Origin: an uncultured Bacilli bacterium
GTDB lineage: Bacteria; Bacillota_I; Bacilli_A; RF39; UBA660
Direction: 5' to 3'
Assembly: GCA_947628585.1 (NCBI GenBank)
Contig: CANRAL010000002.1
Coordinates: 1,343-65,342 of the forward strand
Length of the DNA stretch: 64,000 nt
In this document: one piece after another, positions 17,784-29,262 of the stretch
Position numbering within the stretch: the first letter of the stretch is position 1
How the letters are laid out: each line of letters starts with the position of its first letter
Notes under the pieces: generated by a model
Databases searched by the model: none
What the model was told of the DNA's origin: nothing
Seen by the model: only the letters and a program-made list of their open reading frames with translations
Position numbers and translations under genes: made by a program

Positions 17784-18776
17784 TTGAAAAAAAGAATATT
17801 ATTATTCATTTTTACTTTAATTATTTTAGGATTAATTATTTTGGGAGTTAGTTTATCAGGAAAAAAAGCTAATAAAGACTTAATAAACATTCGAGTTGCC
17901 GAAGTAACCCATAGTTCCTTTTATACTCCCCTTTATGTTGCTTTAGAAAAAGGTTATTTTAAAGATGAAGGTTTAAATGTGGAATTAATCTTAACCCCAG
18001 GAGCTGATAAAGTAAGTGCTGCCGTATTATCTAATGATGTTGAAATAGGTTTCGCCGGAGCAGAATCAGCAATTTATGTTTATAATGCTCAAGAAAAAGA
18101 TTATTTACAAATATTTTCGGGCTTAACCAAAAGAGATGGTCAATTCATAGTTTCTCGAAAACCAAATACCAATTTTCAATTAAAAGATTTATATGGTAAG
18201 GAAATTCTTGTTGGTCGCAGTACAGGAATGCCAGCATTGAACTTTTTAAACGCTTTAAAAAACAATAATATCGATATAGAAAAAATTAATGCTAATTATT
18301 CGGTAGAATTTGCAGCTTTATCAGGATCTTTTATTGGAGGTGTTGGCGACTTTGTTAATCTATTTGAACCTAACGCTACCGCTTTAGAAAAAGAAGGTTA
18401 TGGTTATGTTGTCGCATCAGTTGGTGAACTATCGGGAGAAGTTCCCTATACAACTTTTTATGCTCGAAAAAGTTATATAAATAATAATAGTGAAATTATT
18501 GAAAAATTTACTAGAGCTATCGCTAAAGCACTAAATTATACTCTTAATAATGATAGCAAAACTTTAGCAAATGATATCATTAATCAATTTCCAGATACCG
18601 ATTCTAATGATTTAGCTACTATGATAGATCGCTATAAAAAATATGATACTTGGTTAGAAAATCCTTTTGTTGATGAAAAATTATTTACTAATTTAGAAGA
18701 TTTCTTAATAGATTTTGATTTAATAGATGAATATGTCCCATTTAATGACTTAGTTCATAATTTTTACCATGACTAA
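17784..18776 (+). CDS. ABC transporter substrate-binding lipoprotein, NMT1/THI5-SsuA-like (NitT/TauT family)
   Basis: Signal/anchor N-terminus. Periplasmic-binding-protein type 2 fold hallmarks. Followed by ATPase and permease genes. Confidence 0.75.
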   Translation: MKKRILLFIFTLIILGLIILGVSLSGKKANKDLINIRVAEVTHSSFYTPLYVALEKGYFKDEGLNVELILTPGADKVSAAVLSNDVEIGFAGAESAIYVYNAQEKDYLQIFSGLTKRDGQFIVSRKPNTNFQLKDLYGKEILVGRSTGMPALNFLNALKNNNIDIEKINANYSVEFAALSGSFIGGVGDFVNLFEPNATALEKEGYGYVVASVGELSGEVPYTTFYARKSYINNNSEIIEKFTRAIAKALNYTLNNDSKTLANDIINQFPDTDSNDLATMIDRYKKYDTWLENPFVDEKLFTNLEDFLIDFDLIDEYVPFNDLVHNFYHD

Positions 18777-19186
18777 ATTATTAGAAATTAAAAATTTAAA
18801 AAAGAATTATCATACATTAAATGGGGAAATATCAGCAATTAAAAATATTAGTTTCACGGTTAATGAAGGAGACTTTATAGCTATTGTAGGTTCCAGTGGT
18901 TGTGGTAAATCAACTTTACTTAATATTTTAGGAAATTTAGATAATTATACAGATGGAGAAATAAAATATTTTAAAGAAAATTTAAAAATAGGATATATGC
19001 TTCAAGAAGATGCCCTATTTCCTTGGCTAACGATTTTAGATAATGCTTGTCTAGGATTAGATATAACTAAAACCAAAACAAAAGAAAATGTTGATTATGT
19101 AAAAGGATTATTAAAAACCTATGGTTTAGAAGATTTTATTAATAAATATCCTTCTCAACTATCAGGAGGCATGAAACAAAGAGTTG
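18769..19186 (+). pseudogene. ABC transporter ATP-binding protein, 5' fragment (Walker A to LSGGMKQRV), interrupted by the integrated element
   Basis: GSSGCGKST Walker A, Q-loop and the signature LSGGMKQRV are present. The frame then stops after QRVG inside the ABC signature. The missing continuation is found in frame at 28921. Confidence 0.85.
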
Positions 19187-19277
19187 GTTGAATACTGTGT
19201 ACACACAAAAATATAAAGTAACTTATAACTAAAAATAGAAAGTTAGATAATAATAATTTGATTATTAGGGTTATTTT

Positions 19278-27796: not shown

Positions 27797-28663
27797 GTGA
27801 AAAAAATGGAACATAACAAACTAGAAACCATTACTAATTTATTTGAAGGTAAGGAAATAAGAAGTATCTGGGATAGTGAAAAAGAAGATTATTATTTTAG
27901 TGTCGTTGATGTTATTGGTGTATTAACTGATAGTAAAGATGCGAGTGATTATTGGACTACTCTAAAAAGAAGATTAACTAATGATGAAGGAAGTGAACTT
28001 CCGACAAATTGTCGGAGTTTGAAATTCAAAGCAAAAGATGGAAAAATGAGAAATACCGATACTTTAGATACCAAAGGAATTTTAAGACTAATTGAATCAG
28101 TTCCTTCGCCAAAAGCAGAGCCGTTTAAGGTCTGGCTTGCTAATTTAGGTAGTGAAAGAATTGATGAAGTATTCGATCCAGAAATTGCCATTAATAGAGC
28201 TGTTAATTATTATAGAAGATTAGGTTACAGTGATGAATGGATTAAAAAAAGACTAAACGGAATTGTTGATAGATTTAAACTAACTGATATATGGAAAGAT
28301 GGAGGCATTGAAAAACCTGTTGAATATGCTATGCTTACTAACGAAATATATAAAGGTTGGTCTGGTATGAAAGCAAGCGAATATAAAGCATATAAAGGCA
28401 TAAGAAAAGAAAGTTTGAGAGATAATATGACTGATATAGAAGTTATTCTCACTGATTTAGGAGAAGTTGCTACTCGTGATATAGCAACAACTGAACATCC
28501 ACAAGGATTTAGTGAAAATATGAAAGTTGCTGCACGAGGTGGACAAGTTGCTAATGATGCGAGAATTTCATACGAACAAGCAACTAAAAAATCAGCAATA
28601 TCAAATAAAAATGCACTTAACTACCAATATAAAGATGAAACCAAACAAATTGAAAATAAATAA
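27797..28663 (+). CDS. Bro-N domain / DinD-like (DNA-damage-inducible protein D family) phage-associated protein
   Basis: N-terminal IRSIWDSEKEDYYFSVVDVIGVL resembles Bro-N/DinD. The central IYKGWSGMK and C-terminal GGQVANDAR segments parallel E. coli DinD. Confidence 0.6.
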   Translation: MKKMEHNKLETITNLFEGKEIRSIWDSEKEDYYFSVVDVIGVLTDSKDASDYWTTLKRRLTNDEGSELPTNCRSLKFKAKDGKMRNTDTLDTKGILRLIESVPSPKAEPFKVWLANLGSERIDEVFDPEIAINRAVNYYRRLGYSDEWIKKRLNGIVDRFKLTDIWKDGGIEKPVEYAMLTNEIYKGWSGMKASEYKAYKGIRKESLRDNMTDIEVILTDLGEVATRDIATTEHPQGFSENMKVAARGGQVANDARISYEQATKKSAISNKNALNYQYKDETKQIENK

Positions 28664-28920
28664 TTAAATTTCAATTGTTGTAAAATTTTCAATAACCTAA
28701 AACAATAACTAAAAAATGAAAAAATATAGGTTGTGTTAGAACACACCTTGCAAATCCTTATTTTATAAGGATTTAATAAAGTTCCAAAAAAATCAAGTAA
28801 ACTTATAAGTTAAACTTTTTAAAAAAATTATTCTAAATAGTTAAAAAATAAGTCTGTATCAGACCACACGCAAGCCCCTATAAATAAAGGAAAAAAATGA
28901 AAATGTGTCTATACTACACT

Positions 28921-29262
28921 CAAAGAGTTGCTTTAATAAGAACACTCGCTATTAAACCGGATATTTTATTATTAGATGAACCATTTTCTGCTTTAGATTA
29001 TCAATCCCGTCTCGCAGTTAGCAATGATGTTTATAAAATAATAAAAAAAGAAAATAAAACAGTAATTATGATAACTCATGACATTGCCGAAGCAATTTCC
29101 TTAGCTAAAAAAATCATTGTTCTATCTAAAAGACCAGCAACTATTAAAACAGTCTATGAAGTTAAATTAAAAAATCCTCTTGATCCTATTAATAACCGTC
29201 AAGATGAAAATTTTTCCTATTACTACGAAAAAATATGGAAGGATTTAGATATTAATGTCTGA
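28921..29262 (+). pseudogene. ABC transporter ATP-binding protein, 3' fragment (Walker B, D-loop, H-loop)
   Basis: In-frame ALIRTLAIKPDILLLDEPFSALD ... ITHDIAEA continues exactly from the LSGGMKQRV break at 19186. The stop overlaps the permease start. Confidence 0.85.

Follow-up and report, generated by a model that had tools for sequence, protein, structure and literature searches.

The 64-kb window analysed here (64,000 nucleotides of contig CANRAL010000002.1, from an uncultured Bacilli bacterium) carries an operon for an ATP-binding cassette (ABC) importer whose ATPase gene is split in two. We read the interval 19185..28928, with a probability of roughly 0.85, as an integrated island of a site-specific large serine recombinase (LSR) family, lying between canonical attL and attR sites in a NitT/TauT-type importer ATPase gene. 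The family is widespread and apparently undescribed, and it belongs to uncultured low-GC gut Bacilli ('Candidatus Aphodocola'-like). Its anatomy, its site specificity, its conservation across members and the existence of an empty site were all read from comparisons with loci of other assemblies and metagenome contigs, which are designated by L-numbers (L081, L100, L171 etc.); all positions are window coordinates unless a locus is named. The interrupted operon and the two attachment sites are laid out as follows.

17784..18776, + strand: substrate-binding protein (SBP) of the NMT1/THI5-like kind, SsuA family, whose gene opens the disrupted operon (Pfam NMT1 6.9e-23, NMT1_2)
18769..19184, + strand: 5' part of the ATPase gene, encoding M1-R138 and ending with the GT of codon V139; contains Walker A, the Q-loop and the LSGGM signature
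19160..19206: attL; host arm ...GGAGGCATGAAACAAAGA, crossover GT at 19183-19184, element arm TGGTTGAATACTGTGTACACAC; same layout in 16 unique attL junctions
28903..28952: attR; element arm ATGTGTCTATACTACACTCAAAGA, crossover GT at 28927-28928, host arm TGCTTTAATAAGAACACTCGC; 29 unique attR junctions with 29 distinct host arms
28929..29262, + strand: 3' part of the ABC ATPase gene, from the rest of V139 to the stop; Walker B, D-loop and H-loop
29255..30046, + strand: permease (BPD_transp_1) belonging to this importer; the gene begins before the ATPase gene has ended

The 5' open reading frame (ORF; 18769..19191) terminates in ...YPSQLSGGMKQRVG followed by a stop codon, and the frame picks up again at 28931 with ALIRTLAIKPDILLLDEPFSALD..., continuing to 29262. 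When 18769..19186 and 28931..29262 were joined, the resulting 750 nt encoded a stop-free protein of 249 amino acids, in which Pfam ABC_tran produced a single match spanning the junction (residues 25-158, model positions 2-136 of 137). Alignment of the joined ATPase with eight intact homologues of 247-250 amino acids (71-80% identity) was gapless at the junction, with the motif LSGGM.QR.A.IRTL conserved, and the residue at the break position was Val in 118 and Ile in 2 of 120 intact homologues. The initial annotation had proposed a split ATPase gene and had named, as a test, whether the fragments align as one continuous ATPase; indeed they do, joining in frame into one ABC_tran domain. It had also placed the split within the LSGGQ signature, which is roughly correct, but the exact break is R138|V139, three codons past LSGGM.

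An uninterrupted copy of the gene was found in L100 (GCA_947589165.1), the closest relative with an intact ATPase, where it lies inside the same SBP-ATPase-permease operon; a scan of GTDB representatives with the joined ATPase (pattern QLSGGMKQ) gave, among the matches listed, a best intact relative at 69% identity. The gene order of the window is that of this empty-site locus, which bears out both the earlier placement of the target as the middle gene of an SBP-ATPase-permease operon and the suggested comparison with relatives that lack the insertion. The match of the SBP gene to NCBIfam SsuA_fam was below the family cutoff. The attB inferred by joining the flanks, ATGAAACAAAGAGTTGCTTTAAT, and the uninterrupted sequence of L100, ATGAAACAACGTGTTGCTTTAAT, are equal at 20 of 23 positions and every difference is synonymous, so that the proposed reconstitution of attB held; the L100 empty site reads GGTATGAAACAACGTGTTGCTTTAATT, which is the reconstructed attB apart from synonymous changes. 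No host bases were lost or duplicated at the insertion, and joining the flanks restores the reading frame.

A 10-bp repeat, CAAAGAGTTG, is present in exactly two copies in the 64 kb (19177-19186 and 28921-28930, 9,744 bp apart), against a chance expectation of 0.07, and two matches were obtained in none of 100 shuffles; this is the direct repeat previously reported at both junctions. In order to compare crossovers, junction coordinates were set by protein alignment. At every junction GT occupies the first two bases of the Val codon, and it is the sole invariant sequence common to both arms: the bases beside it vary (CAAACA-GT, CACCGA-GT and CGTAGA-GT in attR versus CAAAGG-GT in attL), and it is followed by T, A or C. 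Because the flanking bases differ between element and host arms, we infer that the crossover dinucleotide is GT and not the whole 10-bp repeat, whose remaining bases would reflect similarity between the arms.

Brought together, the element ends form a near-palindromic attP, (A/G)TGTCT-N14-TTCAAAGA-GT-T..TTGAAT-N8-AGACAC, with mutually inverted arms (P-left consensus AAAAgTGTCTTcActacATTCAAAGA; P-right reverse complement ATTTGTGTCTATACTATATTCAAACA). The window's own arms conform to this family pattern, and its predicted attP junction contains ATGTGTCTATACTACACTCAAAGAGTTGGTTGAATACTGTGTACACAC. The host site follows the consensus ...GGNGGNATGA(A/G)ACA(A/G)(A/C)GN-GT-(T/A)GCNTTAAT.AG.AC, and the reconstructed attB contains TATCCTTCTCAACTATCAGGAGGCATGAAACAAAGAGTTGCTTTAATAAGAACACTCGCTATTAAACCGG. 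Judged by sequence, this arm anatomy is as expected for the attP of a serine integrase, in which only the asymmetric core sets orientation.

Tn4451 exchanges at GA, and a GA crossover was considered by analogy to TnpX/TndX. It was rejected, as the two kinds of arm, P and B, disagree at position 5 of the repeat in L092 and at position 10 in L088, and as the centre of attP symmetry falls on GT. The P-left arm variant of the window, L081 and L096 provides an in-frame ATG (28897..28930) after AAAGGA, from which a 121-aa C-terminal ATPase ORF is called. Deliberate re-expression of the C-terminal half of the ATPase from a start within the element was rejected, since the in-frame ATG occurs only in this arm variant; in the other arm variants read, the P-arm ATG is out of frame. 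The in-frame ATG is probably incidental.

The same insertion recurs at ~36 independent metagenome loci, which carry recombinases 61-99% identical and an orthologous ATPase gene split at the same codon (…SGGM[K/R]QR|V…); the scan of metagenome contigs covered 70 loci beyond those first inspected. Where the recombinase is at least 61% identical, 36 of the 38 detectable right ends continue in frame into VAL(I/A)RT..PD..DE, and thus lie in the same ATPase codon, unlike the low target-site specificity that characterizes Tn4451-type behaviour. Recombinases at most 50% identical had no ABC halves nearby. Loci L088/L089, L092/L093 and L095, with recombinases 81-88% identical, sit in differing chromosomal neighbourhoods. 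In the first two pairs, the left side consists of an NMT1-type SBP, a 139-141-aa ABC_tran fragment, variable cargo and a 41-aa ORF, and the right side of the recombinase, an optional Bro-N or RhuM/Fic gene, the 3' half of the ABC gene and the permease. L095 holds the left part only and has no SBP; its ABC fragment comes after a glycosyltransferase gene, and the contig stops at the recombinase. The ATPase halves of the L088, L092 and L095 loci are 52-69% identical to those of the window, and the break falls at the same residue.

The literature search, which was unproductive, found no report of this target; the terms 'ABC' and 'ATP-binding' do not appear in the main text of PMC7192596 or PMC10083194. 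L150 (11740..11830) and L135 keep an attP-like palindrome intact immediately behind a recombinase of 73% identity; a TraG/TrwB coupling protein, a small resolvase and a further LSR are encoded in the same region. This member seems not to have integrated via its own site and may reside inside a conjugative element.

Scans of the window copy with Pfam, NCBIfam, PHROG and PADLOC described seven ORFs within 19185..28928.

19278..22601, - strand: 1107-aa cargo protein, family-less, at the left end of the element family; an 80%-identical copy lies beside attL in L171
22598..22837, - strand: 79-aa ORF, truncated remnant of a 289-aa element gene (first 68 amino acids); left breakpoint of an internal substitution
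22949..24505, - strand: CoA-transferase (FadX-like) cargo; Pfam CoA_trans 4.2e-23, NCBIfam FadX 1e-114, below the family cutoff
24580..25803, - strand: membrane acyltransferase (Acyl_transf_3) cargo; Pfam 2.6e-18
25947..26072, + strand: conserved 41-aa ORF, candidate directionality factor or regulator
26138..27754, + strand: LSR of 538 amino acids; Resolvase, Recombinase, zinc ribbon and marginal DUF4368
27797..28663, + strand: Bro-N/DinD-like protein, optional cargo adjoining attR; Pfam Bro-N 2.5e-9, PADLOC PDC-S13 1.2e-113

The recombinase and Bro-N/DinD-like genes of the initial annotation are thus both recovered by Pfam. The 538-aa recombinase matches Resolvase (1.9e-21, model positions 3-144 of 145), PF07508 (Recombinase; 6.4e-27) and PF13408 (zinc ribbon; 1.4e-11), displays the catalytic-domain motifs YLRLS24 and SRFSRD, and also matches a PHROG 'integrase' family (1.5e-107). 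Among structures in the PDB, it matched a conjugative-transposon recombinase, SprA (2.8e-13), TP901-1 integrase and the catalytic domain of TnpX (1.4e-11), which is the only part of TnpX with which it was compared. Its homologues number thousands; the best 120 are 74-99% identical, with full-length alignment for more than 100.

The small ORF that had been suggested as a possible excision factor is a conserved gene beside the recombinase, although its length is 41 amino acids (25947..26072) and not 44. It was found 70-190 nt upstream of the recombinase in 53 loci, and the reading frame is intact in each of the 38 unique DNA variants. Substitutions numbered 9030 at third, 6210 at first and 3175 at second codon positions, and recombinases 48-50% identical are accompanied in the same position by a 43-aa ORF with a similar C-terminal L.K.I..LE.N. 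In a collection of 1.8 billion proteins the family comprises 45 cluster representatives, nearly all of 36-76 amino acids. The ORF had no Pfam match and no PDB relative, and its weak PHROG match (0.0019) is to a family of unknown function; a single-sequence AlphaFold model consists of one long helix (residues 16-40) and offers no functional clue. Conservation and synteny indicate that the ORF is a real gene, functionally linked to the recombinase, and its product would be the best candidate for a directionality factor or regulatory partner.

The 1107-aa cargo protein had no match above cutoff in Pfam, NCBIfam, PHROG or PADLOC, and a homologue search returned 85 proteins, all unnamed, one of them from a 'Candidatus Aphodocola' metagenome-assembled genome. 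The Bro-N protein matched a PHROG family at 5e-105; in sibling elements its position is taken by RhuM/Fic or is empty. These gene swaps beside attR suggest an exchangeable defence or addiction slot, PDC-S13 being a candidate defence family. No type IV secretion genes were present among the seven ORFs, and neither Pfam nor PHROG detected phage structural, packaging or lysis genes in the window copy; none were seen in the complete sibling L171. Scans for promoter and terminator consensus sequences at the right end and upstream of the recombinase gave counts at or near shuffle expectation, with no sporulation-type promoter.

L171 clarifies what the window copy has kept. Starting from attL, this element carries a 131-aa ORF, a 1111-aa protein (80% identical to the 1107-aa protein of the window), proteins of 289 and 149 amino acids, a helix-turn-helix (HTH) protein, an IS110 transposase, an 82-aa ORF, an AAA_25 protein, a MobV relaxase, the 41-aa ORF and the recombinase, where the contig stops; in L172, a sibling contig with the same genes, a Bro-N gene follows the recombinase. 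Window positions 19254-22911 are 84-87% identical in nucleotides to the left part of L171 and positions 25936-28663 are ~83% identical to its right part, and similarity to sibling elements restarts only at 25936. At the left breakpoint, a tblastn search with the 289-aa protein of L171 aligned residues 1-68 to window positions 22828-22625 at 79%. The middle of the window element (~22952-25886) is 79% identical in nucleotides to an acyltransferase/CoA-transferase pair of L084 that lies among ordinary chromosomal genes (Fic, UvrB, NrdD), and the two cargo genes were probably captured together from chromosomal DNA.

L081 represents a second strain of the species (99.4% nucleotide identity over 13.3 kb, with the same attR), and upstream of 25936 it carries a 486-aa MobV relaxase where the window has the acyltransferase. 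Thus two strains of one species differ in exactly the segment 22911..25936, which holds HTH, IS110, AAA_25 and MobV genes in one form and the metabolic cassette in the other. MobV is carried by L081, L096, L171 and, as seen by tblastn, many metagenome loci; a tblastn search with the L081 MobV found nothing in the window. Since siblings carry a MobV relaxase and an AAA_25 protein, the family is integrative and mobilizable. The window copy has its own integrase and att sites and no conjugative pore genes, as an integrative and mobilizable element (IME) does, but not a relaxase of its own; it is a mobilizable-element derivative in which the HTH-to-MobV segment was replaced by a chromosomal-type cassette.

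In the mechanism that we propose, a recombinase tetramer would pair the attP of the circular element with attB, make 2-bp staggered cuts at GT, and religate the ends after subunit rotation. Integration would cut the ATPase off after R138, away from Walker B and the H-loop, leaving the importer inactive, and the reverse reaction between attL and attR would rebuild the ATPase gene exactly. Members with MobV and AAA_25 are IMEs, which would borrow a conjugative pore, and the window copy could at most undergo excision and reintegration, with no self-mobilization. Catalysis, cleavage at GT and control of directionality are what the established chemistry of LSRs would lead one to expect, and this copy may be active at present. 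By the same chemistry, the restoration of the gene by excision, as claimed in the initial annotation, would be precise; the conditional or sporulation-linked excision that it also envisaged found no support.

Several observations weigh against this reading or limit it. The window copy is without a relaxase, and is therefore strictly an IME derivative; oriT, the origin of transfer, was not searched for. The DUF4368 match of the recombinase is marginal (25.7 bits, cutoff 25), and this domain is reported to characterize multi-targeting LSRs and to be found in few (0.73%) of the site-specific ones (PMC10083194), which makes strict site specificity somewhat unusual for an LSR with such a tail. In L096/L097, a recombinase module of 95-98% identity runs into the reverse-complemented 5' half of an ABC ATPase gene, and the right end of L123 abuts non-ABC DNA, so that targeting is not absolute. 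No excised circle, attP junction or restored attB of the strain was seen, and the exact 249-aa protein was absent from a collection of 15 billion proteins. Lastly, contigs of independent assemblies are interrupted on either side of the recombinase module, ending at 26039 and 26064 and starting at 28705 and 28867; these breaks identify the module as a repeat in the assembly graph, which we attribute to co-occurring variants with a common module, and they leave a little room for a tandem or more complex arrangement.

In L096 (14640..15110) and in L097, the coding strand has AC in place of GT, and the SBP gene that lies upstream is truncated. Searches for the left end of the L096 element and for the absent 3' half of the ABC gene found neither, and no 3' half lay within 10 kb. 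The two loci could represent an in-place inversion or a decayed locus.

That other assemblies of the same strain break at both module edges, and that the source genome is metagenome-derived, could be taken to mean that the contig is chimeric, two loci having been joined through the repeated recombinase module. We find this hardly credible: attL was confirmed independently in L085-L087 and attR in L081-L083, both ends have canonical arms, and the 1107-aa gene and the right module co-occur in the complete element L171. A chimera is disfavoured because both ends match this one element type, and an LSR insertion at this codon would be there in any case, even if the element were a tandem or larger. 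A decayed temperate phage with a serine integrase, the other half of the initial wording 'prophage remnant or integrative island', is very improbable as well. Serine integrases are often phage-borne, and both the recombinase and the Bro-N protein match PHROG families, but capsid, tail, terminase and lysis genes are missing from the window copy and from L171, and megablast of 17.7-30.1 kb against 50,697 phage records gave no match. What siblings have instead, a MobV relaxase together with an AAA_25/DnaB_C-like protein, typifies mobilizable elements; the island thus stands and the prophage does not.

A further possibility, which we consider unlikely, is that the element is a semi-domesticated switch whose excision, set off by a host signal or a stage of development and steered by the 41-aa protein, switches the importer back on, either reversibly as in comK/phi10403S or terminally as in sigK/skin and spsM/SPbeta. 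Precise excision would restore the ATPase gene, and many independent insertions of one tight integrase clade at one position correspond to the operational definition by which Mageeney et al. (PMC7192596) recognize candidate 'regulated gene integrity', namely recurrent one-clade insertion at one domain position. The loss of mobilization genes from the window copy, the presence of the insertion in every assembly of the species, the conserved small ORF that accompanies the recombinase, and the second LSR element of the window, which splits a BclA-like gene, point the same way. However, the exact protein look-up gave no evidence of excision, nor did the promoter consensus scan bring out a promoter of sporulation type or any other informative one. 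The interrupted gene serves a dispensable nutrient importer and is probably not stage-specific, and among the genes of the window (64 kb of the genome) none was recognised as a sporulation gene; the sigK/skin and spsM/SPbeta logic of the initial annotation, drawn from architecture, was accordingly not supported. In addition, IMEs with a serine recombinase that interrupt dispensable genes and play no part in regulation have been described (PMC5704250). The cargo is highly variable and many siblings have MobV, as for a freely moving element, and close relatives have empty sites; on the strength of the importer target, the variable cargo and these empty sites, we favour an ordinary horizontally moving element. 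The fuller version of the switch, in which the importer is turned on and off reversibly, the 41-aa single-helix protein serves as an unusually small directionality factor and a DUF4368-type LSR has evolved specificity for QR|V, is likewise doubtful.

Among known systems, the island most directly recalls the serine-recombinase IMEs of Firmicutes, with a single LSR, very short flanking repeats, disruption of a dispensable protein-coding gene and cargo that varies; MobV-type relaxases occur among family members, and type IV secretion genes are lacking. Streptococcal IMEs with a serine recombinase integrate in rumA, inside dispensable genes (PMC5704250). Unlike these, the present family targets the QR|V codons of a NitT/TauT ABC ATPase in uncultured low-GC gut Bacilli and has a conserved 41-aa partner ORF, and the relaxase module has been lost from the window copy. 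With Tn4451/Tn4453 (TnpX, and TnpZ as MobV), it shares an LSR, MobV, a 2-bp crossover and, presumably, a circular intermediate; the DUF4368-type C-terminus of those recombinases has a marginal counterpart here. The target specificity of Tn4451 is low (PMC5704250), whereas the window family is restricted to one gene, would exchange at GT, and differs in gene order and cargo.

The gene-intervening elements of spore formers, skin in sigK (SpoIVCA), SPbeta in spsM (SprA-SprB) and gin in gerE (PMC4191935, PMC5499854, PMC5595907), are similar in that an LSR element splits a coding sequence which conservative excision rebuilds. SprA is a detectable homologue of the window recombinase, and the 41-aa protein may play a part similar to that of SprB, the 58-aa directionality protein of SPbeta. 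Their targets, however, are mother-cell sporulation genes with excision wired to sporulation sigma factors, whereas an importer with no visible developmental link is interrupted here and the family is plainly mobile, as indicated by MobV, by the variety of its cargo and by relatives whose sites are empty. Listeria A118/phi10403S in comK ('active lysogeny') likewise combines a serine integrase in a non-essential gene with possible regulation by reversible excision, but the comK element is an entire prophage, whose excision in the phagosome has been demonstrated, and here neither phage genes nor excision were seen.

The island lies in unremarkable chromosomal DNA, which encodes pheS, preceded by a T-box leader, as well as nusG, a P-type ATPase and a PBP5-type carboxypeptidase, and GC content is ~25% throughout the window. 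The source genome is metagenome-derived and rare, with a majority of its proteins in singleton clusters; labels on homologues include 'Bacilli bacterium', 'Mycoplasma sp.' and 'Candidatus Aphodocola'. Downstream of the permease, at 30072..30678 (- strand), three short ORFs (59, 42 and 58 amino acids) resemble, by eye, DinD/Bro-type fragments and may be debris of an earlier element.

A second gene-splitting LSR element of 3,316 bp (36657..39972) lies in a BclA-like collagen gene (36385..40576), and when 36385..36656 and 39973..40576 are joined they yield an open 291-aa collagen-repeat protein with a BclA_C domain. Encoded within it are a 456-aa protein that is repeat-rich or coiled-coil, a 29-aa ORF and a 531-aa LSR, which is 29% identical to the first recombinase and unrelated to it beyond the common recombinase fold; its terminal inverted repeats are TGTATATAGTAAAAAGTGGCACT and AGTGCCACTTTTATATATTTACA and the common dinucleotide is AC. 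Elsewhere in the window, a SAM riboswitch (33967-34050) precedes a metK-like 289-aa ORF (region 33071..34050, - strand) that abuts a TetR gene; the ORF matches the N-terminal domain of SAM synthetase only and may be truncated or divergent. A co-directional cluster at 2473..12748 (- strand), with a T2SSE/VirB11-type ATPase, a DUF5411 plus Peptidase_M15 protein, a 1062-aa protein and family-less ORFs, could be related to a pilus, secretion or conjugation.

For annotation, the 140-aa and 121-aa 'ABC' ORFs of these genomes can be recognized as halves of one interrupted gene. The clean attB/attP pair, the inferred GT core and dozens of natural attL/attR variants provide useful material on LSR specificity, and the pair may possibly be usable as an integration tool; the conserved 41-aa ORF supplies a testable candidate for the directionality factor. 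The exchange of a mobilization module for a metabolic cassette represents in-place turnover of cargo between strains of one species. If the element did act as a switch, excision and reintegration would tune transporter expression within a population. As an integrated island, it adds an ABC-importer ATPase gene to the genes that are recurrently inactivated by integrative elements.

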